Positions 23,573-40,491 of a stretch of DNA of 64,000 nucleotides are shown here, piece after piece. This DNA comes from Kiritimatiellia bacterium (GTDB lineage: Bacteria; Verrucomicrobiota; Kiritimatiellia; RFP12; JAAYLN01), in the NCBI GenBank assembly GCA_017962605.1, contig JAGCUY010000007.1:752-64751 (forward strand). Reading direction: 5' to 3'. Both the position numbers and the translations under genes were made by a program. How positions within the stretch are numbered: position 1 is the first letter of the stretch; the number at the start of each line of letters is the position of its first letter. Below the pieces are notes generated by a model. The model searched no databases, had not been told where the DNA came from, and saw nothing but the letters and a program-made list of their open reading frames with translations.

Positions 23573-23612
23573 CTGGACGCCACCCCCGTCCTTTTCTATT
23601 CTATTCCCATCA

Positions 23613-23640: not shown

Positions 23641-23662
23641 AAGCATTTCAAGCGCAGCGCCA

Positions 23663-23735: not shown

Positions 23736-23887
23736 TACGCGTGAGCGCCAGACATCCTGTGTCTCCGTGCCTATGTGTGAGATTGTCTGCCGTACGGTAG
23801 CACCATGACGAATCCTGTCTGAAAAGAATAGATCATGTCACAAACAGCCCAACAACATCGTAGTTGTGACCACATTTCATCAAATGC

Positions 23888-23917
23888 TTGCCAAAAATAT
23901 CCCAAAAATGGTATAAT
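23888..23917 (+). promoter_or_regulatory. Sigma70-like promoter with extended -10 (TTGCCA-18-TGgTATAAT) driving a leaderless transcript
   Basis: -35 'ttgcca' at 23888, 'tg' at 23909, 'tataat' at 23912..23917, and ATG at 23924. Confidence 0.5.
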
Positions 23918-23923
23918 TGTGCC

Positions 23924-24466
23924 ATGACTTCTTATCAGATTATTTACGATGACGCCATAGGGAATTATGGATTGTTCCCGACTTACAGGGCCAGAGAGCT
24001 GGGCATTTCCGGTGGAACGCTTGTAAAACTCGCACAGCGCGGACGCCTTGAACGGCTGGCGCATGGACTCTATCGCATTGACAAATTCGTTCCGCGCTCA
24101 GACGGGCTTGACGCATACGCATGTGCCGTCGCCTGTTGTGGGAAGGATGCCTATTTGTGGGGGCCATCTGTGCTGGAAATTTATGAGCTATGCCCAACTG
24201 ACCCTTCGCTAAAATATGTCGCCACGCCGCATCGCTTCAGAGGGAAAGTTTCAGAGGGAATTGTCGTCAAGAATCTAATGAAGCCTGAGGAAACAGAAAT
24301 CTATGAGGGGATACGCATTCAGGGGGCGCGACAGGCAATACTTTCCAGTCAGCATATCATAATGCTAGACAGGCTGCTAGAGGCGGTTGATGCTGCAGAG
24401 GAGCGGGGATTGCTTGATTCCACGCAGAAAACGGCCACAATAAGGGAACTTTACAAAAATGACTAA
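23924..24466 (+). CDS. AbiEi-like antitoxin / wHTH transcriptional regulator (type IV TA)
   Basis: N-terminal wHTH 'YRARELGISGGTLVKLAQRGRLERLAHGLYRI'. It is followed by a short nucleotidyltransferase-like fragment and has lower G+C. Confidence 0.45.
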   Translation: MTSYQIIYDDAIGNYGLFPTYRARELGISGGTLVKLAQRGRLERLAHGLYRIDKFVPRSDGLDAYACAVACCGKDAYLWGPSVLEIYELCPTDPSLKYVATPHRFRGKVSEGIVVKNLMKPEETEIYEGIRIQGARQAILSSQHIIMLDRLLEAVDAAEERGLLDSTQKTATIRELYKND

Positions 24467-24750
24467 ACGTCCCAATTCACGCGTCAATCTCGACAAGGCA
24501 ATCGAGCGCAACTTTGGAAGTTATAGGAGTTCAACTGAAATCCGCAGCATAATGGCTGGTGCCATTGTTGGGCAGTTATTGGAGGGTGGATGCAGACTTG
24601 GCCGCCAAAGGTGCTGTCCGGCATTGATTGGGAACCTGTTTATGAGGCCAGTCGTGGAAAGACGGGCATAACGCGAACCCTTGACGAAGCCATTGCGTGG
24701 GCAAATGACCTAATTGCCCGCATTGATGCGGCAAGGTAGGCTCACCGAGC
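24459..24750 (+). pseudogene. Truncated/frameshifted AbiEii-like nucleotidyltransferase toxin remnant
   Basis: A 70-aa ORF 'MTKRPNSRVNLDKAIERNFGSYRSS...' overlaps the AbiEi stop. Translation continues in another frame ('TRTLDEAIAWANDLIARIDAAR*'), so it is far shorter than intact AbiEii. Confidence 0.3.
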
Positions 24751-24780
24751 CGCATTGCGCATCCTGTGAATCCTGTCAAA

Positions 24781-24900
24781 GAACAATAGCCCACGGTGCG
24801 GAAATCTTGTTAGAACACGGTGCGGAAATCTCTTCAAAAGAACGAGCACACCGTGCGAGCCACTAACGACTAACCTCTAACGACTAGCTGCTAACCACAA
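24781..24900 (-). repeat. Left inverted copy (IR-L) of the island-flanking repeat
   Basis: The reverse complement ('gtggttagcagctagtcgttag...gttagtggctcgcacggtgtgc...tttccgcaccgtg...tttccgcaccgtgg') aligns with 39903..40020. Confidence 0.7.
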
Positions 24901-25025
24901 ACCTCTCAACTTTTCAACTTCTCAACTTTTCAACTCCTTGCCTATAACTAACTCCTACACCTACACCTCTTATCTACACCTAACTCCCAACTTCTCAACT
25001 TTTCAACTTTTCAACTTCAAAACAT
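24901..25025. repeat. (TTTTCAAC)n-type tandem repeat block with interspersed CTACAC units
   Basis: 'acctctcaacttttcaacttctcaacttttcaactcc...cccaacttctcaacttttcaacttttcaacttc'. Confidence 0.8.
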
Positions 25026-25119
25026 CCCCTTGACACCTCCCCTGCCCTTTGGTATTCTATTTTCACAATTTCTGATGTGGCGCGGCGGGTGCCACGCTGC
25101 AACCACCAAGGACTAACCA

Positions 25120-25170
25120 CCAAGGACTTTCGACTTTTGACTTTCGACTTTTGACTTGACTTGACAATTT
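25120..25170. repeat. (TTTCGACTT)n short tandem repeat
   Basis: 'ggactttcgacttttgactttcgacttttgacttgacttgac'. Confidence 0.7.
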
Positions 25171-25435
25171 AATTCTGCTTTCTGCATAGCAGTCGTTTAT
25201 CCCGAATCGTCGGAAACTTTTCGTATGGCGACACGATGCAAGACAGCGCGCGACCGCGCGCCTCTTTCTGTGTTTCATACAAGGCCACTTTCCGACGAGC
25301 CCGAGATAAGGACACGGGGAGAGGCCGCAACTTTTTTGTCAGATTTTCGGATTTTTTACGTATATATAGTGAAAAGGGGAATAGCGCAATGTCCTTGACC
25401 AAAGACTACACAACAATAAAGACTGGGGGAACACG

Positions 25436-26110
25436 ATGCACATAGGCCAATTTATAACGAGCCACAAGTTGCTGGTATTTGGCGGCGCGGCCATTGCCGG
25501 TGCTTGCGTGGCCATCGCAACAACGTTTGTTTTGCGGAGGCTGCGCAGAACACGTAAGCCGTCCATGCCGACCTTGCACTCGAAACGGGCAGCGCCAAAG
25601 CCGCTCGAAGCGACGAAAGGACACAAGCCGCCAGTCGCGTTGCCGGCGTCCAACTCGCACGAGCAGCCGGAGCCACAGACTAAACTGCCAGTTACTCCGC
25701 CGTGGCCGACTGCGCCAGCAGTAGGCGGTGGAATTTCGGACAACTGGGCGGAGTTCGTCCGCGACAGACTTGGTGAGCTCGATCCCACTTCATGCGCGGA
25801 CGAAACCAAGTGGGCGCTGGGCGTCGTTGATTTTCTCGATGAACTTAAAGAGGCGGAAGGTGAGGCGTCGCCTGAGGAGCGCAAAGCGTCAGCCACTCTA
25901 CGCACAGCGCTTCTGTCCAGTCTCGATTTCAGAAATTTCAAGCCTGTGGATTCCGATGAATGGAATCCAGAACGGCAACGCGCAGTCGCCGTGGTGCGCA
26001 AACCAGATGCGACGGGGACAAAGATTTTGGGCAAAGGCTCAACGGGACTTTCCCGCAACGGAAAAATCATCCGCAAGCAGGAAGTCAAAATCTCAACAAA
26101 AGGCAACTGA
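25436..26110 (+). CDS. Membrane-anchored hypothetical protein (N-terminal TM, Pro-rich linker, small C-terminal domain)
   Basis: ATG start. TM 'LLVFGGAAIAGACVAIATTFVL'. No recognised domain. It is the first gene of the island. Confidence 0.4.
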   Translation: MHIGQFITSHKLLVFGGAAIAGACVAIATTFVLRRLRRTRKPSMPTLHSKRAAPKPLEATKGHKPPVALPASNSHEQPEPQTKLPVTPPWPTAPAVGGGISDNWAEFVRDRLGELDPTSCADETKWALGVVDFLDELKEAEGEASPEERKASATLRTALLSSLDFRNFKPVDSDEWNPERQRAVAVVRKPDATGTKILGKGSTGLSRNGKIIRKQEVKISTKGN

Positions 26111-26112
26111 AC

Positions 26113-27042
26113 ATGGACTACGATCAATACGACGCGCCCGACATGGCGTTTGGCGCAAACCTCTACGACGACGCATCGCCGGACATCCTCGGCGTCCCCA
26201 ATGCCCAGGCGGACTTTTGGGACATGCAGGAGTTCGCGGACAACTGCGAACCAACTGCCGAAAGCTTCATCATTCGCCAGTTCGGCTATGACAATATCTC
26301 GACAAACGATTTCGCGTACATCTCGAACGCGAACGGATGGTATCAGCCCGGAGGCGGCACTAGCCCCGACGATATCGGCAACATGATGGATATGTTCGGC
26401 ATCGAAAACCACACTTACAGCAATGCCTCCATTGAAAATCTGGCAAGCGAGCTCATGGAAGGACACGGCGTGATTGTAGGCGTTCGCGCAGACCAGCTTT
26501 GGGAGCAGGGGCCGCTGCAGGAACTGTGGAACTGGCTCGCCGACATTTTCGGTTTCGATAATCCAATTGACCAACCGGCCGACCACGCCGTATGCGTGAC
26601 TGGGATAGACATGTCAGACCCTGACAATCCGATGGTCATTCTCAACGACCCTGGACATCCAAACGGGCAGGGCGCGTCCTATCCGCTCGACCGCTTCATG
26701 GACGCCTGGGAGAACAGCAACTTCGTCATGAACGCAACAAACGACCCGCTACCCGCCTTCACGGCGCAAAACGAGGCAATCCGCGACTCCATCTCGCAGT
26801 ATCTTGCCAACAATGACATCGCGCTTCCTTCACCAAATTATACCGTAGCATCTGAGCCAGCAGACATTGACCTGAATGGAATCGCGAATTCCGTCCACGA
26901 GTTTACCACCCCTGTGACTAACATACTGCAAGACATTGCAGGAATCATTGGAGCAATTGCCGGTGTCGTCGTGGCTGGCAATCTTCTTGACAAAGCCCTT
27001 GACGGTTTTTCAGGCGGTGATGACTTTGCCTACTCCCTCTAA
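26113..27042 (+). CDS. Peptidase_C39-like (papain-fold, BtrH/C39_2-type) domain protein with C-terminal glycine-zipper helix
   Basis: ATG at 26113 was confirmed. Cys motif 'NCEPTAESFIIRQFG' and His/Asp region 'DHAVCVTGID...NPMVILNDPGHPNG' are present. The C-terminus is 'IAGIIGAIAGVVVAGNLL'. Confidence 0.45.
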   Translation: MDYDQYDAPDMAFGANLYDDASPDILGVPNAQADFWDMQEFADNCEPTAESFIIRQFGYDNISTNDFAYISNANGWYQPGGGTSPDDIGNMMDMFGIENHTYSNASIENLASELMEGHGVIVGVRADQLWEQGPLQELWNWLADIFGFDNPIDQPADHAVCVTGIDMSDPDNPMVILNDPGHPNGQGASYPLDRFMDAWENSNFVMNATNDPLPAFTAQNEAIRDSISQYLANNDIALPSPNYTVASEPADIDLNGIANSVHEFTTPVTNILQDIAGIIGAIAGVVVAGNLLDKALDGFSGGDDFAYSL

Positions 27043-27072
27043 TCTCAAACCACTCTCATCCCAGTTTTTAAA

Positions 27073-28941
27073 ATGAACACAAACAGCACCCCGACTCTCG
27101 AACAGTTTACCGATGGCGCCACCGCCGTCCTCGCGTTGGAAGCCGCTCTTACGGGCAAACCCGTCGATCCGGAATTAATCAAGAAAATCGCCATGTGGAA
27201 GATGGGCATCTTCCGCATAGTCGTAATGGGCGAGATCAAAAAGGGAAAGTCTTCCTTCATCAACGCCCTTCTTGGCCACAAGAACCTCGTGCCAGTCTGT
27301 TCGGACGTGGCGACATCGACAATCTTCAAGATTTGCTACGGCGAAAAAGTCGGCTACAAGGTCTATTTCTTCCAGGACAGCGGCAAGGCTCCAGTCGCAA
27401 TCCAGGCGGATGAACTCCCCGCATACGGCACAGAGGACGGCAATCCCGGCAACGAGAAGCAAGTTGATTTCATACAAGTCTTCTGCCCGTCGCCGCTTTT
27501 GAAAGCTGGTCTTGTGATTGTCGATACCCCAGGACTTGGAGGACTCTTCAAGCAGCACAAGCGCATTACCTACCAATACGTTCCCAAAGCCGACGCCGTC
27601 TTCCTTGTCACCGACAGCGTTGAGTCTCCAATCGGACAGGCGGAAATTGATCTCCTTGGCGACCTCAAGAAGGTGACAAAGCACATCTTCTTCGTGCAGA
27701 CGAAATCGCGACTTGTCGATGCGGATGCCCGCGAAGCCCGCAAGGAGAACAATATTCGTACCCTCGCGGAACAGGCAGGGTTCGAGAAGGACAAGATCAG
27801 GTATTTCGTTGTGGATTCGGCGACCAAATTCGCCGCCGACGAGGAACATGACTTGAAGAAGCTAGACCGCAGCGGCTTCGGCGAAGTGGCGCGTTTCGTG
27901 AACGGCTACATTCGCCCGAATGTCCACCGGCTCATCATGGCCCGCGCCATGGCGGAAATGCGTCCGAAAATCGACGCCGTATCGCGCGAACTCGACGCCC
28001 AGGCCGCAATCCTAAAGACAAAAAACGAGGAGGAACGTCAGGCCGCTATCAACGAACTGACGCGGGAACAGGAGCAGCTCAAGGCATGGGACTCTACGGA
28101 AAAGCGGGTCGTCTTGGCCATGCTTGAGGATGGCCTTGTCGAAGTCCGCGAGAAAGCGCTTGATACGATAGGCGCGTATAGGCCCAATGGGGCATTCCAT
28201 CAGGAAGTCTCTGCGACTCTCGCTAATCTTGATTCGGCAACGCAAATCGAGGATGCGCTGACAATTATCCAGCAGAACCTCTCCGATACCCTTTCTCAGG
28301 TTCTCTACGACACCGAGAAGGAAATGTCGCAGGGATGCGTGAAACTGCTTTCAGAAATCAGCCGGAAAATCGGCAAGTCTGTGGAACAAGGCGTCCTTCA
28401 GTCCGACTCGAACATTAGCGTTCCGATTTCGGGAGTTCCCGTGGAGATTAATAAATCGACGATGTTTGAGTCTTTGCGAAACGGATGGTTTGGAGGAACG
28501 TTCGGGGCGGCAATTGGTGGAGCCATCGGTAGTATTGTTCCGGTTGTTGGAACGACTGTTGGCGCATGGGTTGGCGCTTTTGTCGGCGGTGCGCTCAGCG
28601 GACTGTCATCAAACAAGCACGAAATGATTGCCGCTCGCAATCAGGCAGGTGCGGTCTTTGGCGGATGGCTTGCCAACGCATACGCCGAGATGTCGCAGAA
28701 AATCGGCTCGGCGCTAGACCAGATCAAGCGCAACGTCACGCGCGGCGTCACGGAAGCGGTGACTTCCGTCATCAAGGAGAAGGCCGACCATATCGCTGAA
28801 CTCAAGCAGATGGGGCAGAAGAGCAGCGAAGAAATAAAGGCGAAGATGGCGGAACTTCAGAAGCGCCAGCAGCAGTTCAAGCAAGCCGTCAACGACATGC
28901 AGGGCGGCGGTGCGGCAGCTGCAGCCGCCAAGGGAGCGTAG
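27073..28941 (+). CDS. Bacterial dynamin-like protein (BDLP/DynA-family large GTPase), copy 1
   Basis: G1 'GEIKKGKSSFINALLG', G3 'VIVDTPGLG', and long helical C-terminal stalk/paddle regions. Confidence 0.7.
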   Translation: MNTNSTPTLEQFTDGATAVLALEAALTGKPVDPELIKKIAMWKMGIFRIVVMGEIKKGKSSFINALLGHKNLVPVCSDVATSTIFKICYGEKVGYKVYFFQDSGKAPVAIQADELPAYGTEDGNPGNEKQVDFIQVFCPSPLLKAGLVIVDTPGLGGLFKQHKRITYQYVPKADAVFLVTDSVESPIGQAEIDLLGDLKKVTKHIFFVQTKSRLVDADAREARKENNIRTLAEQAGFEKDKIRYFVVDSATKFAADEEHDLKKLDRSGFGEVARFVNGYIRPNVHRLIMARAMAEMRPKIDAVSRELDAQAAILKTKNEEERQAAINELTREQEQLKAWDSTEKRVVLAMLEDGLVEVREKALDTIGAYRPNGAFHQEVSATLANLDSATQIEDALTIIQQNLSDTLSQVLYDTEKEMSQGCVKLLSEISRKIGKSVEQGVLQSDSNISVPISGVPVEINKSTMFESLRNGWFGGTFGAAIGGAIGSIVPVVGTTVGAWVGAFVGGALSGLSSNKHEMIAARNQAGAVFGGWLANAYAEMSQKIGSALDQIKRNVTRGVTEAVTSVIKEKADHIAELKQMGQKSSEEIKAKMAELQKRQQQFKQAVNDMQGGGAAAAAAKGA

Positions 28942-28944
28942 CAA

Positions 28945-30555
28945 ATGGGCGATGCGCCATCGGGAATAGGCCGCAAGTTGCAGGAGTCGTTCCGTGACTT
29001 CCTGCACGAGTCGGCGGAGATGTTCGGGGAATACGGGTTCCTCGGCGACTGCGAACGACAGCTTCGTGAACTGGAAGCTGGCATCGTCCGGCCCTTCAAC
29101 ATCGCGGTATTCGGACGCATGAAGACCGGCAAGAGTTCGCTCATCAACGCCCTGCTTGGTCGCGACCTCGCCATCACCGGCGTTGAGGAGACGACGGCGA
29201 CAGTAAACGTCATCTCGCATTCGGATGACCCCGCTATGCGCGGCAAATTCACCGTCCACTGGAAAGACCGTCCGCCTGAAACGTTCCTGCTTGACCGCCT
29301 CACCGTAGACTGGTCAGGCAAATCGAGGGAGGTCGTTGAGAAGGTCGCGAACACGGCCTATCTTCAACTCTACTCGGACGACCCCGCCCTAGCCCTCCAC
29401 GAAATCATTGACACGCCAGGAACAGGTGCGGCGGTCTCTGACCATGAGAAAGTCGCCCAGGCCTTCCTTGATCCGTCCGTGCAGGAGGGGCGCAAGGCCG
29501 ACGCGCTTGTCTATGTCTTTGGCATAAACGGGCGCGAGACCGACGAGGCGAATCTCAAGACATTCCGCGAGGGATGCCTACCCGGATCAAGGCCATACAA
29601 CAGCGTCGGCGTTCTTCACAAATGGGATGCCACCTATTGGAACTCCGGCGGAGACTGGGCGGAAATCCAATCGAAGGCCGAACGCCTAAAAGGGCAGATG
29701 GCTTCCGTCGTGGCGGATGTCATCCCAGTCAGCGCACCAATCGCCATGGCCGCCGCGCGGGCGACCGACGACGACCTCGCGACGGTCATTGCGCTAATCG
29801 GCAATAAGGGCGGCGAGTCCGTGGAGTCGCTGCTACAGGACGATGAAGACTGGAACGACGATGCGGACTGCCTGGCCTTGCGAAAACGTTTCACAATCCC
29901 TTGGATTTGCTTCCGGGTCTGTGTCCGCGAAGCCATCAAACTTGGCGATGGTGCGATGCCGGAGACACTACGCGCCCGTCTCCGCGAACTAGGCGGCATT
30001 GATCGTCTCCGCTCGTTCCTCGACCGGAACTTCTTCAAATCCGCCGCGCTCATCCGGCAGCGCCAGCAATATGCACGATTCCTCCGCGTCAAGGACGAGG
30101 CATACGCCCGCATACAAGACCGTCAGGAGGAACTGGAAACGGACGCCAAAAACTGGGATGCCCTATTTGAGCGGTCGATTGAACCAAGGTCTATTGCTTC
30201 CTGGGTCGAGCGAAAGCGCTTCCATGCAAAATCGGAACTGGAGACGCTCGTTCGGAAATGGACGGATCAGGACGGCCGATACCTCAACAGCGGCATCCCG
30301 AAGATCCTCGACGACCTCAACGCGCTGGACTGGTGCGCCGCCCATCCCGAACGCATATCCGAGACGGAGCTTGCGGCTCTTAATACGATGGCCGATCGCC
30401 TCGCCGGCGATGAAGCTGCCGCTTTGGACGCGGACATGCTCCGCGCCGTAAAAAAGCGCTTTTCGTCGCTCCGGCTCGGAACGCTGGACGCCGCAGGGCG
30501 CAAACTCGCCGATTATCTTTCACGCCGCATTGACGCCGCACTCCGCCTGAAATAA
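28945..30555 (+). CDS. Bacterial dynamin-like protein, copy 2 (paired with copy 1)
   Basis: G1 'GRMKTGKSSLINALLG' and G3 'IIDTPGTGA'. A 3-nt gap separates it from copy 1, the typical tandem BDLP arrangement. Confidence 0.7.
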   Translation: MGDAPSGIGRKLQESFRDFLHESAEMFGEYGFLGDCERQLRELEAGIVRPFNIAVFGRMKTGKSSLINALLGRDLAITGVEETTATVNVISHSDDPAMRGKFTVHWKDRPPETFLLDRLTVDWSGKSREVVEKVANTAYLQLYSDDPALALHEIIDTPGTGAAVSDHEKVAQAFLDPSVQEGRKADALVYVFGINGRETDEANLKTFREGCLPGSRPYNSVGVLHKWDATYWNSGGDWAEIQSKAERLKGQMASVVADVIPVSAPIAMAAARATDDDLATVIALIGNKGGESVESLLQDDEDWNDDADCLALRKRFTIPWICFRVCVREAIKLGDGAMPETLRARLRELGGIDRLRSFLDRNFFKSAALIRQRQQYARFLRVKDEAYARIQDRQEELETDAKNWDALFERSIEPRSIASWVERKRFHAKSELETLVRKWTDQDGRYLNSGIPKILDDLNALDWCAAHPERISETELAALNTMADRLAGDEAAALDADMLRAVKKRFSSLRLGTLDAAGRKLADYLSRRIDAALRLK

Positions 30556-30567
30556 AGGATCACGACA

Positions 30568-32718: not shown

Positions 32719-32754
32719 CATCGCAAGCACATTACGTTCAGGTTGAATAATAAG

Positions 32755-35340
32755 ATGAATAATTCTATCGGCATCGACTTCGGCACCACCAAGACGATGG
32801 TGTCGTATTTGAATCCCGTCACCGGCAGGGCGGAACTCGTCGTTTTGGATAAAAATCGCGACCGGCCTTCCATCCCTACGACTATTCATCAGGATGAAGC
32901 AGGGCAAGTCGTTTTTGGTGAAGAGGCCGATGACCAATTAGCCTATGATCCCGAAGGCTATTGCCGCGCCTTCAAACTTCATCTGGGGGAAAACGACCCC
33001 GTGTTGACTCGGACGGGGGCTACGGCGGAGGCACTGACGGAGCGCTTTCTTGAACATATCAAAGAGGAATGCGAACTGAACGTCTTCCACGGAGAGTCGA
33101 TAGACACGGCGACCATCACGGTGCCGGTGCTGTTCTCTCCTTCGCGAAAGGCGTCGTTGAAGCGTGCCGCGGAGGCGGCCGGATTCTCCTCGGTTTCGTT
33201 TCTGCCCGAGCCGGAAGCCGCTGGAACGGCGTTCCTGCGCGACAATCCGGCAGACAAGTTCTCACGGGCGCTTGTCCTCGACTGGGGTGGCGGCACACTC
33301 GACATCGCCATCATTTCCCGGAACGAAGATGGGGCTATCCATGCGGACCGCCATTGCGCGGAAGGACGCGATGACGTAGGCGGAGAGGAGATGGACAGAC
33401 TATTGCTTGGCGCGGGAAATGAATTGTGGCGCGCTACATTCGGGTTGCCCTTGATTGAGTCCGAGGAAAACGAGCCGAAGCTCTTGCGTGAGGCGGAGAA
33501 AGTAAAGATTGGCCTTTCCCGCAAGGATACGGCTACTTTTAGGCGCGTGACGAGGAAAGTCGATGTCTCACGGGCGCAGTTCAAGCAACTTATTGCGGAA
33601 ATGCTCGATTCTGCAGTCGAACTTGTCCAGTCTTCGCTTGCGAAGAACAAGAATCAGGGCAATCCCGCGCCAGACGCCATCCTTTTGATTGGCGGCACTT
33701 GCCAGATTCCAGCCGTCCGCGAGGCAATGGAGACAAACTTTCCTGAACTCCGTGTCCTGTCATGGCATCATTCGCACGAGGCTGTGGCGCTGGGAGCTAT
33801 AGGAACTACCACGGCAAATATCCATTCTGGCGTCAACTTCAAATTCCAAGCCAAATACGATTGGCTCAAAAGAGAGAGGGTGCCAACTCTAGGAGGCGCA
33901 ATTGAATCCGGCATCTACCAGACTCCAGATGGAGGCTGGCAGTGCAACTACGACGGAGATTGGGGGTATGGTTGCGCGATAACGCTTCGTCCCGGCGAAG
34001 CCGAACCCTATGAAGTCCACGGTGAGATCTGCAAACGGTGGTATTGGGAAGGCGGTGCCTTTGACGAAAACGGCAGACGAGGCTGGTTGGGCTATCCTAT
34101 CTCCGACGAAGAGGCCTTTGAAGGCGACGGCGATCCCGCCGATCGCATTTCGCACTTCGAGAACGGGGACATCGTATGGTCGGAGAAAACGAAAGAGACC
34201 CGCATCGTCAACATCAAGGATCTAGCAAAGTGGCGCAACTTCAAATTCCAAGCCAAATATGATTGGCTCAAGAGAGAGAGGGTGCCAACTCTTGGGAGCG
34301 CAATTGAACCCGGCATCTACCAAACTCCAGATGGAGGCTGGCAGTGCAACTACGACGGAGAATGGGGGTATGGTTGCGCGATAACGCTCCGTCCCGGCGA
34401 CGCCGAACCCCATGAAGTCCACGGTGAGATCTGCAAACGGTGGTATCGGGAAGGCGGTGCCTTTGACGAAACCGGCAGGCGGGGCAGGTTGGGCTATCCT
34501 ATCTCCGACGAGGAGGCCTTTGACGGCGACGGCGATCCCGCCGACCGCATTTCGCACTTTGAGAACGGAGACATCGTATGGTCGGAGAAAACGAAAGAGG
34601 CCCGCGTTGTCAACATCAAGGATCTGGCAAAGTGGCGCAACTTCAAATTCCAAGCCAAATACGATTGGCTCAAGAGAGAGAGGGTGCCAACTCTTGGGGG
34701 CGCAATTGAACCCGGCATCTACCAAACTCCAGATGGAGGCTGGCAGTGCAACTACGACGGAGAATGGGGGTATGGTTGCGCGATAACGCTTCGTCCCGGC
34801 GATGCCGAACCACATGAAGTCCACGGTGAGATCTGCAAACGGTGGTATCGGGAAGGCGGTGCCTTTGACGAAACCGGCAGGCGGGGCTGGTTGGGCTATC
34901 CTATCTCCGACGAGGAGGCCTTTGAAGGCGACGGCGATCCCGCCGACCGCATTGCGCACTTCGAGAACGGAGACATCGTATGGTCGGAGAAAACGAAAGA
35001 GACCCGCATCGTCAACGTGTTGACGGATGAAGCTTTGCGCCTATTTGCCGGATTATCCCAAGTAGATGGCGCCTTAAACCAAACGGAAGTTGATTTCATG
35101 GAGAAATGGTATCCCGGTTCCACTACCAAGTCGGCGTGGAACGAAAAATTGCTGTACTCCGACGAAACAATAGAAGCATTAGCCGACAATGCCGCAACAT
35201 CATACAATTGCAACAAACAAGTATTGTCGGCGTTGATGCAGCATCTATGCGAATTCGTTTTATGCGACGGCCTCATGAATTCAAGCGAGAATGCTGCGCT
35301 CTCGTGGATCAACTATTTCTTCTTTACCAAGTATCAATAA
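32755..35340 (+). CDS. Hsp70/DnaK-type NBD ATPase fused to three tandem LGFP-like repeat modules
   Basis: 'IGIDFGTTKTMVSY', 'LVLDWGGGTLDIAIIS' and 'ILLIGGTCQIPAVRE' are present. Then come 3 x ~134-aa repeats containing 'GWLGYPISDEEAFEGDGDPADRISHFENGDIVWSEKTKE'. Start is ATG at 32755 (TTG at 32743 is also possible). Confidence 0.65.
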   Translation: MNNSIGIDFGTTKTMVSYLNPVTGRAELVVLDKNRDRPSIPTTIHQDEAGQVVFGEEADDQLAYDPEGYCRAFKLHLGENDPVLTRTGATAEALTERFLEHIKEECELNVFHGESIDTATITVPVLFSPSRKASLKRAAEAAGFSSVSFLPEPEAAGTAFLRDNPADKFSRALVLDWGGGTLDIAIISRNEDGAIHADRHCAEGRDDVGGEEMDRLLLGAGNELWRATFGLPLIESEENEPKLLREAEKVKIGLSRKDTATFRRVTRKVDVSRAQFKQLIAEMLDSAVELVQSSLAKNKNQGNPAPDAILLIGGTCQIPAVREAMETNFPELRVLSWHHSHEAVALGAIGTTTANIHSGVNFKFQAKYDWLKRERVPTLGGAIESGIYQTPDGGWQCNYDGDWGYGCAITLRPGEAEPYEVHGEICKRWYWEGGAFDENGRRGWLGYPISDEEAFEGDGDPADRISHFENGDIVWSEKTKETRIVNIKDLAKWRNFKFQAKYDWLKRERVPTLGSAIEPGIYQTPDGGWQCNYDGEWGYGCAITLRPGDAEPHEVHGEICKRWYREGGAFDETGRRGRLGYPISDEEAFDGDGDPADRISHFENGDIVWSEKTKEARVVNIKDLAKWRNFKFQAKYDWLKRERVPTLGGAIEPGIYQTPDGGWQCNYDGEWGYGCAITLRPGDAEPHEVHGEICKRWYREGGAFDETGRRGWLGYPISDEEAFEGDGDPADRIAHFENGDIVWSEKTKETRIVNVLTDEALRLFAGLSQVDGALNQTEVDFMEKWYPGSTTKSAWNEKLLYSDETIEALADNAATSYNCNKQVLSALMQHLCEFVLCDGLMNSSENAALSWINYFFFTKYQ
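33835..35013 (+). repeat. Near-identical 402-bp tandem repeat x ~2.9 inside the Hsp70-NBD gene
   Basis: Units start at 33835, 34237 and 34639 ('aacttcaaattccaagccaaata(c/t)gattggctcaa...'), with only a few substitutions between copies. Confidence 0.85.
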
Positions 35341-35425
35341 TGGCATCTGGATGCAGCCAAAAGCACACCATCTAGGAGGAATAACCATGGCCACAACCAA
35401 GACATCCACCACGGAGGACTAATTC

Positions 35426-36592
35426 ATGGGACACACAACCGAACCAACTGGCGAGAAGCCGCCTGTTGAGCAATGGCTCGCAAACACTGGAAAGCATTCT
35501 GCGGAATGGACTTTCCGATCTGTCAAGAACTTCTTCAAATTTGAACACCCAACCGAAACAGAGGTTTCACGATTCGGAAGTGCCGCAGCCACTTTTGAGT
35601 TTTCCCGATTGTTTCCGCTTGCCGTCGTTTGCCTTGGCTTCGGATGGATTGGATCATGGATATGCTCTGTCTGCGATTTGGATGTAGAATCCGATTCCAG
35701 ATGGGCGATATGGCCAATCGCCTTTCTTGCCCTATATGGTGTTATTAGAGCTCTGAAGCATTTCCTGCGGCCAAAGAGCATCGAATGGTGGCCAAATGCG
35801 CTGATCTGTGCATTTACTGCCACAATAGGGTTGCTAACCCTTTTCCTCTTTCAGAGCCTGGCTGACGTAATGGCGGATATTGACGCAAGGCGCGGTTTTG
35901 TGGCATTGGTAAAAATGATTGGGCAATGCTATCGAGCAGTTGACGATCCCGAAGCTGGTCTTTCTGAGAAGTTCATAGGCTATATTGGAGGAGTCGGTCT
36001 TTGTGAGGAATCCGTGAAGATTCTCCCAGTTTGCCTCCTGATGGTCAACAGGAAAAAACTGCCGTTCAGACTTGAATTGTCTTTCCGGTCATTTTTGACA
36101 TTGGCATTCTTCTCCGGACTTGGTTTTGGCATCGGGGAGGCGCTATATAGCTATGCCATTCCTGAAAATGGCGATTTGGATGCCCAATTGTCACGGTGGT
36201 TCGCCTGCGTCCCCTCGCATGCGATCTATACAATGATCGATGCCGCCTTCCTTTGGCTACTGCAACCGCAAATCCAAAGAGCCGCAGACCCCAGAATAAA
36301 AGTAGGTTGGTTTGTCCTTTGCGTGGCAACAGTCGCTGTCTTGCATGGGATCTACGATGTCCTTTGCGTAATTCCATTTGTGGGCGTGCTCCTTGATGCG
36401 GCTTCGTTGGTGCTACTTTGGTGGGCGGTGCGGTTTTCCATTCGGCGCCGCTCCTCGGTTGACGGTTCGGATTCTTCGGGCCTAGAGGACTTCAACGCCA
36501 TGACTTTCAATACTTTTGGCAAATTTTTTGCCAAGACATATCTCATCATTCTCGTCGGCATTATCCTTTATGCCAAGTTCTGGTGTCTTTGA
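35426..36592 (+). CDS. PrsW-family intramembrane metalloprotease (anti-sigma-factor site-1 protease-like)
   Basis: RBS 'ggagga' plus ATG at 35426. Multi-TM. PrsW signature motifs 'CEESVKIL' (EExxK), 'GFGIGEALYSY' (FGxxE) and 'HGIYDVL' (HxxxD). Confidence 0.6.
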   Translation: MGHTTEPTGEKPPVEQWLANTGKHSAEWTFRSVKNFFKFEHPTETEVSRFGSAAATFEFSRLFPLAVVCLGFGWIGSWICSVCDLDVESDSRWAIWPIAFLALYGVIRALKHFLRPKSIEWWPNALICAFTATIGLLTLFLFQSLADVMADIDARRGFVALVKMIGQCYRAVDDPEAGLSEKFIGYIGGVGLCEESVKILPVCLLMVNRKKLPFRLELSFRSFLTLAFFSGLGFGIGEALYSYAIPENGDLDAQLSRWFACVPSHAIYTMIDAAFLWLLQPQIQRAADPRIKVGWFVLCVATVAVLHGIYDVLCVIPFVGVLLDAASLVLLWWAVRFSIRRRSSVDGSDSSGLEDFNAMTFNTFGKFFAKTYLIILVGIILYAKFWCL

Positions 36593-36604
36593 GGAGTATT
36601 CATC

Positions 36605-37381
36605 ATGAAGTTCATCTGTCCGCATTGCAATCAGCATTTGGAGAGTGAAGAGGATGTTGCAGGAATTGGCGTTGAATGCCCCAACTGCGGCAAAACGTTT
36701 GTCGCGGCATCCTCTGGCGCGGAAACCATGCTGGGGGAAGCTCCACAAGAGCGAACGTCTGAAGGCGAACTCGACGCTGCCAATGACTTTCTTGAACGCG
36801 CGATTGGAAACATTCTGCATGCAATCTGGGGCATAATTAGCAGAATCGGCCATGTGATTAAATGGCTTGCAATGCGCCTGTATGATGTTGTCAACTGGTT
36901 ATTCAGAATGCTAATCGACATTGTGAAGTTCTTCTTCACAATCCGTTTCCTGAAGCTTCTGGTTTTGCTGGTAGTTCTTGCGGTCGTATGCGCCGTCTTT
37001 GCGGGTATAATCGCTGCGCCGTTCTTCCTTTTGATTTGGTTCGCTCAGGGGACGCCTTGGGGCACGATGAAGAGTCTGATGGGCATGCCTTTCGTCGACG
37101 CGACCAGAGTTGTTGGGCGGACGGTGTATGCATGGCTCTGCGGAGAAGGGGTCAAACATGGTCTTTACAATGCGGCATGGATTGTTGAGGGAGTTTGGTT
37201 GGTATTGTTTGCAGGTTGGGGTGCCTGGAAGGGCGTTAAGAGCTACAAGCGCGGTGTGATTGCGCGCTGGCGTGAACGTCGAAGGATTCGTAAGGCTGAA
37301 CGCCGTGCGGAAAAGGAAGCCAGACGGGCAGCAAAAGAAGCAGCAAGGCAGGGCGAGGCCCAGCCACTCGCTATTCGCTAG
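36605..37381 (+). CDS. Zinc-ribbon membrane protein (hypothetical)
   Basis: N-terminal 'CPHCNQ...CPNCGK' ribbon, several TM helices, and a C-terminal Arg/Lys/Glu-rich tail. RBS 'gaggag' is present. Confidence 0.4.
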   Translation: MKFICPHCNQHLESEEDVAGIGVECPNCGKTFVAASSGAETMLGEAPQERTSEGELDAANDFLERAIGNILHAIWGIISRIGHVIKWLAMRLYDVVNWLFRMLIDIVKFFFTIRFLKLLVLLVVLAVVCAVFAGIIAAPFFLLIWFAQGTPWGTMKSLMGMPFVDATRVVGRTVYAWLCGEGVKHGLYNAAWIVEGVWLVLFAGWGAWKGVKSYKRGVIARWRERRRIRKAERRAEKEARRAAKEAARQGEAQPLAIR

Positions 37382-37419
37382 CCAAATCGGCGACACAATC
37401 CAAGAAAGGACGGTAAAAC

Positions 37420-38499
37420 ATGGGCACGATACTTGGAGACATGTTCAAGAAGGTCGGGGGTGGCCTTGGAAAAGGCTTTGCGTCATGGCTTGGGCAAATC
37501 TCGACGTGGATTGCGCTTTTAGTCGCAACAGTACTGGCTGTCGCATCTCTGGTTGGCGGCATCTTCTGGATCCCGACAAAAACGCTGGGCGTCCTGATCG
37601 CTGGCATCGGGTGTTTAGCTTCCGGCATTCTCTTTGCCCTCTGTCTGCGAAAGAGCGGAGTATTTGGCTCAAAGGATGCGGAAACCCGTGCTGCATTGCA
37701 GAAGGAAATCGAAAAACTCCGCTGCGAAAAGGATGCCCGCATCGCCGCGTTGGAGGCCGACAACGAACGTCTAAAGCACCAGCGCATCGACGTCAATTCG
37801 TTCGCGCCCATCCTCAAGCTGGGACTTGCCGAGGCTGACATGTCAGTTCGTGATGTGAAAATCGAATGGATGGACGATTTCAAGCCAGGAAACATGTTGA
37901 CGAATGTGATTGGCTACCCCGCGCGCAGCAAATACGTTGGTGTCATTCAACGGTCGTTCAAGGCCGTTTATGGCGTCGATTTGATGAAACTCAAGATTTG
38001 CGAGGATAACGACTGTCTTCGCATAGCCGGTATCGTGCCGGAGAACATCGGCATCAAGGATGACGAAACGCGCTGGCTTCTGCGTCAGACGCAGACTTTC
38101 CGGTTGAAGGGAACTCCTCTGACGCGCGGCGATGGCATCCCGCAGCAATGCGCCATAGGCGACGGCTGGGGCGATGGCGAGAAATTCTGGCAAATCGACA
38201 AGGAAGCGCCGTTCGAGGGCAGTCTCGATCTCAACAAGACTGCGGAAATGGCGAGTGCGCAGGAGCACGAGCTTGGCGAACGCATCAACCGAAGCCAGGG
38301 CGCCGAGTTTAGGATGATGAATGGCTACATCCAGCAAATGGCGCAAGGGTTTGTCAGACTCCTCCTCGCTCCCGCCCACAAGCCTGTGGTCTTCGTACAG
38401 ACTCCGCTTGCCGAAATCGCCGACTCTCCAGCATGGCTCTCTCTGGAAGACTTCGCTGCCGGATTCAACAATAAGTTGCTGGCGGAAAACAAACCATGA
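37420..38499 (+). CDS. Membrane protein with coiled-coil segment and DUF4230-like C-terminal domain (hypothetical)
   Basis: Two N-terminal TM helices, a coiled coil 'ALQKEIEKLRCEKDARIAALEADNERLK', and a region resembling DUF4230 ('VIQRSFKAVYGVDLMKLKI...'). Confidence 0.35.
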   Translation: MGTILGDMFKKVGGGLGKGFASWLGQISTWIALLVATVLAVASLVGGIFWIPTKTLGVLIAGIGCLASGILFALCLRKSGVFGSKDAETRAALQKEIEKLRCEKDARIAALEADNERLKHQRIDVNSFAPILKLGLAEADMSVRDVKIEWMDDFKPGNMLTNVIGYPARSKYVGVIQRSFKAVYGVDLMKLKICEDNDCLRIAGIVPENIGIKDDETRWLLRQTQTFRLKGTPLTRGDGIPQQCAIGDGWGDGEKFWQIDKEAPFEGSLDLNKTAEMASAQEHELGERINRSQGAEFRMMNGYIQQMAQGFVRLLLAPAHKPVVFVQTPLAEIADSPAWLSLEDFAAGFNNKLLAENKP

Positions 38500-39134
38500 C
38501 CAAAACAAGAACGAAGAAGTCCGCCAAGGGTGGGGCCATGAAGCCTTCCCTGCGAGACCGCATCTACACCTCCTTCGAGCAGATGACGGATGCGTACAAC
38601 GAAGTGCGTGATGACCTGATCGCGCTGGGCATTCTTTGGAGGGGCTCGAAGCTCGACAAGGTGGAGTGCTACTATGAATCCATCGCCCCCATTGCCGCTC
38701 TCAAGGGGGGGATGGGGTATTTCAGTTTCAAGGACCACGACATCCATTTTCCCTCCTTATATCTGCCTTTCGGCTGGCTGACCGGCAGCGTTGGCGAAAA
38801 AGATTCTGCATCAAACGTGATCCGCCACGAGTTCGGCCACGCGCTCGCCGATCAGTACCCAGCGGCGCTGAAAAAGGGCGGGCTTTTCCGCGAGGCGTTT
38901 GGAGGAGTCTATTCCGACAAGCCTGCGCCCGACATCGATCCCGACAACTGGGAGTTCGATTGCGTCTCCCCCTACGCCGCAACCGAAACCCGCGAGGACT
39001 TCGCGGAGACTTTCATGCTTTTCCTGAAGCACAAGGGGAAGTTGCCGAAAAAGTTCGCTAATAAACCAGCCATCGCGAAGAAATGGGCCGCTGTGGCTGA
39101 AATCATAAAGCGCGTTCGTGCATTAGAAAACTGA
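38496..39134 (+). CDS. HExxH zinc metallopeptidase-like protein
   Basis: 'IRHEFGHALAD' (HExxH) with a downstream Glu in 'REDFAETF'. Its start overlaps the previous stop (ATGA). Confidence 0.5.
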   Translation: MTKTRTKKSAKGGAMKPSLRDRIYTSFEQMTDAYNEVRDDLIALGILWRGSKLDKVECYYESIAPIAALKGGMGYFSFKDHDIHFPSLYLPFGWLTGSVGEKDSASNVIRHEFGHALADQYPAALKKGGLFREAFGGVYSDKPAPDIDPDNWEFDCVSPYAATETREDFAETFMLFLKHKGKLPKKFANKPAIAKKWAAVAEIIKRVRALEN

Positions 39135-39161
39135 AAGAATACCTAATCAGGAGACCTCATC

Positions 39162-39872
39162 ATGAATAAAACAACAACGAAGAAAAATGCGCCAAAGGCG
39201 CGTAGGGAAACTGAAACCGTAGTCTGCCCACATTGCGATACGGAGTGCCTTGTGTCGGAAAACGGACGCTATGAGTGTCCAAATTGCACAGGACAGTTCG
39301 ATGTAGACTGGTTTGACACGCCGCATGTCCACCAGCCCGACTTGCAGACATGCGGCTGGGCGACGACAAAGTGGCTTCTGTCCGCATTTGGGTGTGAGAT
39401 GCCATCAAACAAGCAACTCGAACGGGAACTGCATGTCCGCAAAGGTCGCGATGGTCTTTCGGGCGCACTTCTCAAGGCTTACAACTACTTTATCGAAGCT
39501 TTCGGCAAGAAGTGGAACTGGCAAAAGATCGACTCTCAGGACATTTCTGGAACTTTGCCCACCGACCTTGTCGCGACACTCAATCGACATGGACTCAAGC
39601 CTGTATTTCCTGGAATCCGCGAACTGCTCCGCTATTCCGACTATAAGAACTACATGAAAGAAGTGTTCGCCCAGCAAGGCCGTTTTGCGCTCTTCTATGT
39701 TAACACGACCCGCGATGGGTCTTATGCACATTGGATCGGGATTGAGAAGTTCAAGAACAGGGTCCGCGTGATGGATCCCATGGACTATGACTACTCGCCG
39801 TTTTCAAAGCACGAAGCCATCCGCAGCAAGCGAATTCGCGCATGCTGCATGATTGGGTTCGTGAGGGCGTAG
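39162..39872 (+). CDS. Zinc-ribbon + Peptidase_C39-like (papain-fold) domain protein
   Basis: 'CPHCDTEC...CPNC' ribbon. C39-type 'QPDLQTCGWATTKWLLSAFG' (Gln/Cys) and 'SYAHWIGIEKF...VMDPMD' (His/Asp). RBS 'aggaga' is present. Confidence 0.5.
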   Translation: MNKTTTKKNAPKARRETETVVCPHCDTECLVSENGRYECPNCTGQFDVDWFDTPHVHQPDLQTCGWATTKWLLSAFGCEMPSNKQLERELHVRKGRDGLSGALLKAYNYFIEAFGKKWNWQKIDSQDISGTLPTDLVATLNRHGLKPVFPGIRELLRYSDYKNYMKEVFAQQGRFALFYVNTTRDGSYAHWIGIEKFKNRVRVMDPMDYDYSPFSKHEAIRSKRIRACCMIGFVRA

Positions 39873-39902
39873 GGCGCTGTCGCGCCTGAGAGGTTTGTCG
39901 CC

Positions 39903-40265
39903 CGTGGTTAGTGATTAGTCGTTAGTCATTAGTGGCTCGCATGGTGTGCATCCCCTATCGAATATTTTCCCGCACCGTAATCTATCGACTTCTCCGCACC
40001 GTGGTCTAGCGACAATTCCTAACCTTAGTCTAGCGACCTTTCCGACCCGTAGTCTATCGATGTTTCCTCGCCATAGTCTATCGACATTCCCGCATGGTAT
40101 AGCCTATCGACTTTTCCGAAACATGATCCAAAGTTTTTCCGAACCATGGTCAGTTTTTCTTTCCGCACCATGGTCTATTTTTCTTTCCGCACCATGGTCT
40201 ATTTTTCTTTCCGCACCATGGTCTATTTTTCTTTCCGCACCATGGTCTTGTGAAACGAATGCATG
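39903..40265 (+). repeat. Right island-flanking repeat (IR-R): 'gtggttagtgattagtcgttag' head plus ~12 degenerate 24 to 27-bp tandem units ending in 4 perfect 'tttttctttccgcaccatggtcta' copies
   Basis: Direct reading. It matches 42030..42310 in the same orientation and 24781..24900 in inverted orientation. Confidence 0.8.
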
Positions 40266-40369
40266 GCGGCGCCGCATCAGCAGCTTGCGCATAGCGGGAG
40301 TGGTTGTGATACTACTCAATCAGATGACAAAGTGTGTAGATAGCAGAATGCGCCTGAGCAGAATACAGG

Positions 40370-40452
40370 TGGTTGTGAAAATGGAAAATTTGGCATATTT
40401 TGTGGTTGTGAAAATGTGAAAATCTGTATGTTTTATGGTTGTGAAAATGGAG
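40370..40452 (+). promoter_or_regulatory. Three ~31-bp direct repeats 'ggttgtgaaaatg' (iteron/operator-like) plus -10-like 'gatataat' upstream of the AAA ATPase
   Basis: 'ggttgtgaaaatggaaaatttggcatattttgtggttgtgaaaatgtgaaaatctgtatgttttatggttgtgaaaatggagcgaatatgatataat'. Confidence 0.4.
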
Positions 40453-40491
40453 CGAATATGATATAATATCTTGAATTTTGGGAGAATCTGC

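Follow-up and report, generated by a model that had tools for sequence, protein, structure and literature searches.

The 64,000-nt stretch of contig JAGCUY010000007.1, from the metagenome-assembled genome of a gut Kiritimatiellia bacterium, that is analysed here (hereafter the window) carries eleven open reading frames (ORFs) that fill positions 25436-39872 on the plus strand and that are treated as one operon, g1 to g11. Its conserved core, as comparison with other genomes shows, consists of a predicted GrpE-like protein anchored by a transmembrane (TM) helix (g1), a C39_2 cysteine peptidase (g2), a paddle-bearing dynamin-like GTPase (g3), a second dynamin-like GTPase (g4) and one or two proteins with the nucleotide-binding domain (NBD) of Hsp70 (here g5 and g6). 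A first-pass annotation of the same DNA, made from its letters without database searches, had described the eleven plus-strand genes and had named the paired dynamin-like GTPases and the paired Hsp70-NBD fusions; the ORFs are indeed present, and both pairs are confirmed by Pfam matches. It had also called the genes closely spaced, and so they are, but its range of 3 to 90 nt had to be revised. With two starts corrected from the gene calls on a metagenome contig (g2 at 26113, g6 at 32755), the spacing runs from a 4-nt overlap between g9 and g10 to 85 nt between g6 and g7, and is at most 38 nt elsewhere. The contig used for this purpose, L003, matches window positions 22755-45364 at 99.85% identity and is of the same strain.

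Genes of the operon

The first gene, g1 (25436..26110, plus strand), encodes a TM helix (residues 12-30), a basic RRLRRTRK patch, a proline-rich linker and a conserved C-terminal domain of ~125 residues (~100-224). The protein itself received no Pfam assignment (the GrpE model, PF01025, scored E 0.12), and it had been left without a function in the first-pass annotation. Among its homologs, however, 21 of 35 match the Pfam GrpE model (best 8e-6), and two database homologs carried a precomputed GrpE match. When a profile of the family was compared with the PDB, the best match was E. coli GrpE (1dkg_A), at a non-significant E of 0.56. The AlphaFold model of g1 has a predicted local distance difference test score (pLDDT) of 85.6, exceeding 95 in the C-terminal domain, and the top 12 hits of a Foldseek search of the PDB with this model are all GrpE, the best being 1dkg_B (E 5.8e-6, probability 1.0). 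Judged at the level of the modelled fold, g1 is GrpE-like, with weak to moderate support from the sequence, and a nucleotide-exchange activity is predicted for it. By the positive-inside rule, its GrpE-like domain would face the cytoplasm. The g1 family comprises 211 clusters at E <= 1e-3 among 1.84 billion representatives, with no canonical GrpE among the best matches.

The paralogous Hsp70-type proteins g5 (30568..32718, plus strand; Pfam HSP70 8e-34) and g6 (32755..35340, plus strand; HSP70 7e-33) are matched by the Pfam model over profile positions 109-378 of 599 only, and since the match ends there, the canonical substrate-binding domain (its beta part, SBD-beta, and the lid) is missing from both. 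In its place, the C-terminal half of g5, whose residues 1-348 are matched by DnaK NBD models and whose product is 100% identical to the NCBI protein "Hsp70 family protein [Kiritimatiellae bacterium]", carries a Zn ribbon, Sel1 repeats and a C-terminal glycine zipper, and g6 continues with three 134-aa LGFP-type repeats (LGFP 1.4e-27) and a weak TerB-like tail (E 0.019). The ATPase residues of the NBD (D8, K71, E149 and D173-G-G-G-T-x-D180) are invariant in 18 homologs. Given these residues and the modelled GrpE fold of g1, the Hsp70 cycle of the system is plausibly complete.

The C-terminal halves are the variable part of these proteins. In 45 Kiritimatiellae homologs, the NBD shares 62-81% identity with those of g5 and g6, yet 24 of the 45 C-terminal halves bear no detectable similarity to either, which points to a swapping of modules on a constant engine; the interchangeable repeat modules found on such NBD proteins are of Sel1, LGFP, ankyrin, TPR and GYF type. 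Within g6, the LGFP-type repeats are encoded by three tandem 402-nt units (33834-35037) of 94-95% nucleotide identity, and g5 and g6 share 74-78% nucleotide identity where they encode the NBD, both of which are signs of recent duplication and possibly of recombination. Three tandem Hsp70-NBD genes, with no dynamin gene within the available flank, were also seen at positions 4748-12766 of an Akkermansiaceae metagenome-assembled genome (MAG; SUVM01000014.1, L009), and proteins made of an NBD and a variable tail therefore exist outside a dynamin context.

Between g1 and the Hsp70 genes lie the peptidase and the two dynamins. The product of g2 (26113..27042, plus strand; Pfam Peptidase_C39_2 1.8e-7) is a papain-like cysteine peptidase in which Q39, C45 and H158 are invariant and D179 nearly so among 15 orthologs, and which ends in a glycine-rich hydrophobic membrane segment and a conserved acidic tail. 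The first dynamin-like GTPase, g3 (27073..28941, plus strand; Dynamin_N 7.4e-19), has a glycine-zipper paddle at residues ~470-520 (Pfam glycine-zipper match at 474-508) and intact P-loop (GEIKKGKS) and DTPG motifs. It matches the PADLOC model of LeoBC with 1.7e-26 over its residues 45-610 and model positions 76-596 of 601, and its best PDB matches are IniA (6j72, 9e-20) and BDLP (2j68). The second, g4 (28945..30555, plus strand; Dynamin_N 1.2e-16), follows after a 3-nt gap and is devoid of a paddle; its P-loop (GRMKTGKS) and DTPG motif are likewise intact, its best PDB match is Cj-DLP (5owv_C), and the PADLOC LeoA model aligns with its residues 36-90 only (9.5e-11). The Pfam matches of g3 and g4 are confined to Dynamin_N, MMR_HSR1, AIG1 and IIGP. 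The catalytic residues of NTPases and peptidases are intact throughout the system. TM or glycine-zipper segments occur in g1, g2, g3 and g5, and none of the operon proteins has a signal peptide, for which reason the assembled machine would be expected at the inner membrane, on its cytoplasmic side.

The five remaining genes are best regarded as accessories. The product of g7 (35426..36592, plus strand; Pfam PrsW 4.4e-14) is a PrsW-family intramembrane metalloprotease with at least five hydrophobic segments and visible EExxK and HxxxD motifs; that of g8 (36605..37381, plus strand) is a membrane protein (TM 118-136) with an N-terminal zinc ribbon supported by Zn-ribbon matches; and that of g9 (37420..38499, plus strand), which has no significant Pfam match, comprises an N-terminal TM hairpin, a coiled coil and an unassigned domain, with a weak match (0.0039) to the paddle region of the PADLOC LeoBC model. 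The domain DUF4230, which the first-pass annotation had put forward as a search model, matched no operon protein, even at E <= 1 in the case of g9. The last two genes encode an HExxH zincin (g10, 38496..39134, plus strand; Peptidase_Mx 2.5e-6, motif HEFGH) and a zinc ribbon joined to a papain-fold cysteine peptidase (g11, 39162..39872, plus strand). For g11, which lacks a significant Pfam match, the assignment comes from an AlphaFold model of moderate confidence (pLDDT 78), with which Foldseek retrieved first the C39 domain of PCAT1 (E 1.9e-4) and then staphopain and the papain-type toxin of a contact-dependent inhibition (CDI) system, and from residues C22/C25/C39/C42, Q58, C64 and H190, which are invariant, and D205, which is nearly so. 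The earlier identification of a PrsW protease, an HExxH peptidase and C39-like papain folds in second and last place accordingly holds. An origin of g11 as a paralog of g2 was considered and rejected (hhalign probability 0.6%), both proteins being of papain fold but independently derived.

The pair g10-g11 also turned up in other company. In other Kiritimatiellae, loci L087 (1-11500) and L088 (1-10700) hold a cluster encoding, in this order, WXG100, an EssC-like FtsK/SpoIIIE protein of ~1080 aa, a vWA protein, a hypothetical protein, a second vWA protein and PP2C. Downstream of it, L087 has both Peptidase_Mx and a g11-like peptidase, and L088 has a g11-like peptidase alone. This cluster is an unstudied system resembling type VII secretion systems and TerY-P that shares accessories with the dynamin-Hsp70 operon, and g10-g11 seem, from such gene neighbourhoods, to behave as a portable accessory pair.

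As to expression signals, a promoter-like site (TTGACA-17-TATTCT with a TG element, 10/12 matches) at 25030..25058 on the plus strand lies 377 nt upstream of g1; it is a consensus match only. A riboswitch or attenuator in the 377-nt leader was rejected, as there was no Rfam match, the folding z-score was -1.41, and terminator-like structures were as numerous as expected from shuffled sequence.

Distribution of the core

Some 25 loci were inspected in all. The order g1, g2, g3, g4, Hsp70, Hsp70 is shared by four other Kiritimatiellae loci (L001, L004, L005 and L007), and it is the genes after the Hsp70 pair that differ: the trio PrsW, g8 and g9 occurs as such in the window only, a g9-like gene (1e-53) and a patatin gene take this place in L004, a metallo-beta-lactamase gene in L005, and g11 with a g8-like gene in L001. 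PrsW is missing from all four loci and is thus confined to the present lineage, g8 relatives follow the Hsp70 genes in L001 and L007, and Peptidase_Mx (g10) follows them in L001, L004 and L005 as well as in L023. The eleven genes, which the first-pass annotation had taken as one unit, are consequently better divided into a core (g1-g6), a swappable set (g7-g9) and the portable pair g10-g11.

In a scan of Verrucomicrobiota with one genome per species, a five-gene core of g1, g2, g3, g4 and a single Hsp70-NBD gene was found in L008, L011-L020 and L023 (Akkermansia spp., Akkermansiaceae and Verrucomicrobiales MAGs from herbivore guts), and L021 has the core with no detectable g1. The Hsp70 C-termini of these Verrucomicrobiota carry ankyrin, Sel1 and GYF_2 + DUF4190 modules and an L7/L12-C-like domain. 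Within the Planctomycetes-Verrucomicrobia-Chlamydiae (PVC) group, a g1-like gene precedes g2 in 18 of 20 loci, in 14 of which its product has the TM helix and the basic patch.

Outside PVC bacteria, a Bacteroides MAG (L027) encodes a sigma-r4 protein, C39_2, a dynamin, an NBD-only Hsp70 and a second dynamin, followed by a Zn-ribbon protein, an IetA-like AAA ATPase and a caspase; plasmid pANA01 of Anabaena sp. 90 has a cluster of a CHAT protein, Hsp70, a C39 peptidase and two dynamins; and pVAPN of Prescottella equi has a C39 peptidase near a dynamin-GTPase-Hsp70 operon (g2 profile E-values 6.6e-64 on pANA01 and 8.8e-29 on pVAPN). Taken together, these loci extend the quartet of C39_2 peptidase, dynamin pair and Hsp70 NBD over four phyla, in two of which it is plasmid-borne. 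The tethered GrpE-like gene is not part of the Bacteroides, Anabaena and Prescottella versions and, by this gene content, appears to be a PVC addition. Defence-related genes were seen upstream of the system elsewhere, namely a gene like the phage-defence candidate PDC-S01 in L001 and PDC-S27 in L004, and its accessories and neighbours include, besides a patatin resembling the phospholipase effector of CBASS and the IetA-like AAA with caspase, a ZacB/PbeA-like phospholipase D protein.

The insertion and its repeats

The operon has a G+C content of 0.540 as against 0.626 in the left and 0.624 in the right flank, and the G+C content at third codon positions (GC3) is 0.48-0.71 in its genes and 0.75-0.90 in long flanking genes, so that the A+T-richness ascribed to it earlier is confirmed. 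The low-G+C stretch, however, spans ~23.6-43.3 kb, and its borders could be set by comparison with relatives. The core gene upstream (DUF459/SGNH, 22820-23572) was used as a query against metagenomes, and in L098, L099, L100 and L101 its orthologs (62-72% amino acid identity) directly precede the ortholog of a TPR gene, with an intergenic gap, where it was read, of 75 nt in L098 and 19 nt in L101. Because the two genes adjoin in relatives yet are 19.7 kb apart in the window, in which the TPR gene starts at ~43319, the variable insertion extends over 23573..43318 (strand not applicable). These borders coincide with those of the low-G+C stretch (0.526 within the insertion vs 0.625 in the flanks), and they replace the ~15-kb, repeat-bounded compositional island of the first-pass annotation.

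From left to right, the cargo of this hotspot comprises AbiEi with a reduced AbiEii, an inverted copy of a repeat that we call R together with 8-mer arrays, the eleven-gene operon, a second R, an intact AAA_14/DUF4143 gene, a third R and a PDC-S01 fragment. A sister strain (L094/L095) is 97.9% identical to the window across 11 kb of the left flank; homology ends at window position 23819, beyond which other genes follow, and in L094 this alternative cargo, made up of a PIN-domain gene, a KilA-N gene (PDC-S22, 1e-125) and further genes, is divided by three R copies of the same orientation. Among places with an identical DUF459 protein, every contig that reaches far enough past the gene (4/5 places) carries the island, and the empty site was seen solely in more distant relatives, not within the same strain. 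The segment is therefore horizontally acquired and strain-variable, as was suspected in the first-pass annotation, on the evidence of the empty site, the alternative cargo, the deviant G+C and GC3, and the orthologous clusters on plasmids.

An origin from a phage or satellite was rejected because no g1 or g2 relatives and no R repeat were found in the IMG/VR viral contigs, and PHROG matches were confined to generic NBD and glycine-zipper segments. An integron-like array was likewise set aside: all ORFs of at least 190 aa in 23.6-43.3 kb were assigned and none encodes a recombinase, attC-type structures not having been searched for.

Copies of R lie at 24761..24900 (minus strand), 39887..40250 (plus strand) and 42022..42310 (plus strand; 84% identical to the second copy). 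The repeat measures ~130 nt or more and is composed of at least two 24-nt units with CCACGGTGCGGAAA, an GAGCACACCGTGCGAGCC box and then CTAACGA heptads; copy 1 is followed, up to 25036, by arrays of the 8-mer AACTTTTC. The 17-nt unit TTCCGCACCRTGGTCTA of the 24-nt units has 18 matches in the window vs 0.21 expected by chance, and the GTTAGTC heptads number 12 vs 0.41. Copy 1 aligns with both plus-strand copies of the window and with the three copies of L094 (11007-11335, 12170-12471 and 13507-13630), and copy 2 has a different number of 24-nt units in L003, the contig of the same strain. The inverted and direct copies reported at the two ends of the operon are thus real (24787-24908 is the reverse complement of 39887-40008 over 122 nt, with 74% identity), but they do not bracket the acquired segment, since R also occurs at 42022-42310 and between the cassettes of L094. 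For the same reasons, that is, the third copy, the uniform orientation in L094 and the insertion borders lying elsewhere, we rejected R as the terminal inverted repeats of a transposon-like island and regard it as the cassette-boundary repeat of the hotspot.

Several smaller repeats accompany these features. Two 22-nt direct repeats, GAATCCTGTC..AATAG (82% identical, 23810-23831 and 24768-24789), flank the AbiEi cassette, which is missing from the sister strain L094 exactly between them; this suggests that the cassette was gained or lost by recombination at the start of R. The 8-nt unit AACTTTTC and its variants form intergenic tandem arrays at 23655-23750, 24884-25036, 9110-9141, 9675-9698 (minus strand) and 62583-62598 (21 matches vs 0.31 expected). 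Just upstream of each PDC-S01 gene, beside promoter-like hexamers, stand three direct repeats of 33-34 nt (33-nt units at 40369-40467, following R copy 2, and a second set at 42416-42508); the two sets differ in sequence and look like putative operators or iteron-type binding sites.

The remaining genes of the insertion are of the defence type. On the left, an AbiEi antitoxin/regulator gene (23924..24466, plus strand; PADLOC AbiEi 2.2e-38, Pfam AbiEi_4) is followed by ~295 nt up to the next repeat, in which its AbiEii partner survives as a ~280-nt remnant (24460-24739) with N- and C-terminal pieces in different frames and no gene called. The module has therefore decayed to its antitoxin/regulator. 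On the right lie the AAA_14 + DUF4143 ATPase gene (40492..41862, plus strand; PADLOC PDC-S01 2e-184, Pfam AAA_14 and DUF4143) and the C-terminal fragment of a second PDC-S01 gene (42518..43117, plus strand; PDC-S01 2.3e-36, model positions 261-433 only). The location next to AbiE and AAA-ATPase cassettes that had been noted earlier is hence correct as regards AbiEi and PDC-S01, but the AbiE cassette is not intact in its AbiEii half.

Two observations concern the window outside the insertion. ORFs of low GC3 also occur at 17444-18187 (0.54), 18232-20265 (0.67) and 50186-51097 (0.63) and may be further acquired genes; among their products are an ATPase_2 protein whose N-terminus is ADH_N-like and a protein that the PADLOC PDC-M03A model matches weakly (1.4e-7). 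In addition, the G+C skew is +0.24 to +0.26 across 51000-54000, a stretch that holds two long minus-strand ORFs (51176-52984 and 52989-53933), and is near zero or negative elsewhere in the window.

Discussion

The combination of genes described here is not described as a system in the literature that we searched, in which few subscription journals were covered, and to this extent the first-pass annotation, which did not recognise it, was right; its parts, however, are known from several sources. The known system closest to the dynamin pair is Eleos (formerly 'Dynamins'; LeoBC + LeoA, Millman et al. 2022; LeoABC in enterotoxigenic E. coli). A two-gene dynamin system of this kind protects against phages, depends on the P-loops of both proteins and in 60% of cases lies together with defence genes (bioRxiv 10.1101/2022.05.11.491447). 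In common with Eleos, the dynamin genes of the window are adjacent, the one with a paddle preceding the one without, the match of g3 to the LeoBC model is full-length, both P-loops are intact, and the setting is a defence island. Unlike Eleos, which is self-sufficient as two genes, the pair is embedded here among a GrpE-like factor, a C39_2 peptidase and Hsp70-NBD proteins, and the LeoA structure (4AUR) is not among the PDB matches of g3 or g4 at E <= 0.01.

The closest conceptual precedent is the DO-GTPase/GAP1-N2 theme, that is, conflict systems predicted to combine other GTPases with Hsp70 and GrpE (DO-GTPase/GAP1; Kaur, Burroughs, Iyer & Aravind 2020, PMC7159879). Shared with it are a paralogous GTPase pair, Hsp70, GrpE and an Hsp70 without peptide-binding domain, as well as Zn ribbons, TM segments, associated peptidases and the principle of a core that stays constant while its repeat or effector modules vary. 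The GTPases differ, being of the dynamin family in our case: g3 and g4 gave no DO-GTPase match, although the Pfam set includes DO-GTPase models (a DO-GTPase2 match was seen for another protein). There was no Pfam match to GAP1 among the eleven proteins, the presence of GAP1 models in the library not having been verified, and the tubulin, FNIII and DnaJ components of these systems were not detected in the operon proteins. Their taxa are mainly actinobacteria and firmicutes, as opposed to the PVC bacteria, Bacteroidota and cyanobacteria of the present one.

A linkage between dynamin and DnaK genes, with no function attached, has been noted for the 'chaperone clade' of cyanobacterial bacterial dynamin-like proteins (BDLPs; Jilly et al. 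2018, PMC5827413). The likeness goes further than this linkage, in that g2, g3, g4 and the NBD all have clear orthologs on pANA01 of Anabaena sp. 90; that earlier observation, however, concerned a gene pair only and noted no C39 peptidase, GrpE-like partner or variable C-terminal modules. The paired or fused dynamins IniA/IniC (iniBAC of mycobacteria), DynA and Cj-DLP1/2 resemble ours in acting at the cytoplasmic membrane, and IniA is the best solved relative of g3, but they have no known Hsp70, GrpE or peptidase partners and belong to chromosomal stress regulons or housekeeping rather than to hotspot cargo. Compared with the canonical DnaK-DnaJ-GrpE machine, the operon retains an Hsp70 NBD with all catalytic residues and a partner of modelled GrpE fold; what sets it apart is that it has neither SBD-beta and lid nor a J protein and that its GrpE is membrane-tethered and highly diverged. 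The Hsp70-containing CoCoNuT/McrBC systems (PMC11090510), which have different GTPases and nucleases, were rejected as unrelated.

We propose that the operon is a mobile conflict system of the membrane surface, most likely directed against phages, in which an extended Eleos-type dynamin pair would be gated by Hsp70/GrpE and assisted by protease partners, a proposition to which, judging by sequence, modelled structures and gene context, we give an even chance. According to this proposal, the variable C-terminal modules of the Hsp70-like proteins would bind a trigger, be it a phage protein or a damage-derived protein at the membrane, and the tethered GrpE-like factor would locally reset the ATP/ADP state of the NBD. 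The nucleotide state of Hsp70 could then recruit or license a heterotypic g3/g4 dynamin complex, which by GTP hydrolysis would tether, seal or sever the cytoplasmic membrane in the manner of DynA, Cj-DLP1/2 and IniA. The C39_2 peptidase and the accessories (here PrsW, the zincin and the Zn-ribbon papain peptidase, elsewhere patatin, metallo-beta-lactamase or AAA with caspase) may process components or targets of the system, either as activation steps or as effectors. What inclines us towards a role in conflict is the hotspot itself, the AbiEi and PDC-S01 neighbours, the occurrence of PDC-S01-like, PDC-S27 and PDC-S22 genes elsewhere, the effector-like accessories, the existence of a validated two-gene dynamin system and the LeoBC match of g3, the constancy of the core beside a variable periphery, the patchy and partly plasmid-borne distribution, and the predicted conflict systems that join other GTPases to Hsp70 and GrpE (PMC7159879).

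A number of points weigh against this proposal. PADLOC models match no component of the operon besides the dynamins, the operon lacks any nuclease, NADase or pore-former of the sort usual in abortive infection, and Pfam scans found no DnaJ/J-domain match among its eleven proteins. Membership in Eleos is unproven, since g4 matches LeoA over just 55 N-terminal residues. The defence-island neighbourhood is correlative, resting on ~25 loci and assessed with no statistical background. Moreover, bacterial dynamins also carry out housekeeping membrane repair, and the closest solved relative of g3, IniA, is an envelope-stress protein. In Bacillus, PrsW is a sensor protease of envelope stress.

The last two points lead to the main alternative, which we consider doubtful but deserving of attention, namely that the operon is an envelope-stress or membrane-repair module of the iniBAC/DynA type. 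Its dynamins would reseal or excise damaged inner membrane, Hsp70/GrpE would extract or refold damaged membrane-associated proteins, PrsW and the peptidases would sense and clear damage, and the module would be mobile because it helps gut bacteria to survive bile, antimicrobial peptides or bacteriocins. The ranking of PDB matches of g3, with IniA first (9e-20) and BDLP and Cj-DLP next, is consistent with this, as are the PrsW protease in the operon, the membrane anchoring of its parts and the fact that its carriers are PVC bacteria of the gut or rumen. DynA and Cj-DLP1/2 have been proposed to be repair machines (PMC6104087; PMC8844932), and the cj-dlp operon has a Sel1-type HcpA-like protein (PMC6104087), which recalls the Sel1 repeats of g5. 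However, PrsW, g8 and g9 are confined to this lineage and stand outside the core, the hotspot is loaded with AbiE, PDC-S01 and PDC-S22 cargo, and the wholesale swapping of Hsp70 C-termini, together with effector-like patatin and caspase+AAA genes, fits an arms race better than housekeeping. The two readings also overlap, because the phage protection afforded by DynA works through membrane maintenance.

An improbable second alternative holds that independent cassettes (g1-g6, g7-g9 and g10-g11) came to lie side by side by chance and owe their common orientation to the way in which the hotspot accepts cargo. It accords with the lineage-specificity of g7-g9, with the occurrence of g10-g11 alongside an unrelated FtsK-vWA-PP2C system, with the several cassettes divided by R repeats in the hotspot, and with the position of the largest gap (85 nt) between g6 and g7. 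Against it, there is no R repeat, 8-mer array or convincing terminator within 25436-39872, the remaining gaps do not exceed 38 nt and g9 and g10 overlap by 4 nt, Peptidase_Mx recurs after the Hsp70 genes in other loci (4 in Kiritimatiellae plus L023), and multi-gene conflict systems are normally built in this way, with effectors that vary around a conserved core (PMC7159879). Finally, a role in trafficking or secretion, with dynamins releasing outer-membrane vesicles or cargo or shaping the internal membranes of PVC bacteria and Hsp70 as an uncoating or sorting ATPase, is very unlikely: LeoA has been linked to toxin and vesicle release (PMC4159319), 'chaperone clade' dynamins and a downstream DnaK-domain protein were proposed to serve protein sorting in membrane remodelling (PMC5827413), and g10-g11 accompany the WXG100/FtsK (EssC-like) cluster, but the operon encodes no secretion substrate, signal peptide or outer-membrane component, its rare and strain-variable distribution argues against a basic cell-biological role, and the system is found neither in viral contigs nor in most of the PVC genomes sampled.

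Returning to the conflict system that we favour, bacterial dynamin pairs such as Eleos and DynA protect against phages, and how they sense infection and act on the membrane is the puzzle to which the operon and its relatives speak. They offer candidate partners for the dynamins: an Hsp70-like protein that could serve as sensor or clamp through its swappable binding domains, a tethered GrpE dedicated to it, and a cysteine peptidase. With such partners, what was an opaque system of two genes becomes a pathway that can be tested. They also define a small and distinct family of membrane-anchored GrpE-like proteins, and they document in Kiritimatiellae a strain-variable cassette hotspot with a boundary repeat of its own. 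If the structural model of g1 is a guide, the Hsp70 nucleotide cycle would have been recruited here outside protein folding. There is applied interest in the carriers as well, among which are relatives of Akkermansia and other bacteria of the gut.

The boldest version of our proposal, in which an Hsp70-type ATPase with exchangeable modules and a tethered GrpE, gating a dynamin pair and a papain-like peptidase, constitutes a new class of prokaryotic membrane-immunity machine, strikes us as unlikely at present. If it were true, bacteria would possess their own version of the partnership that Hsc70 and dynamin form at eukaryotic membranes, one that plasmids and hotspots have carried into PVC bacteria, Bacteroidota, cyanobacteria and actinobacteria, and it might provide a handle on the way in which Eleos-type dynamins sense infection.

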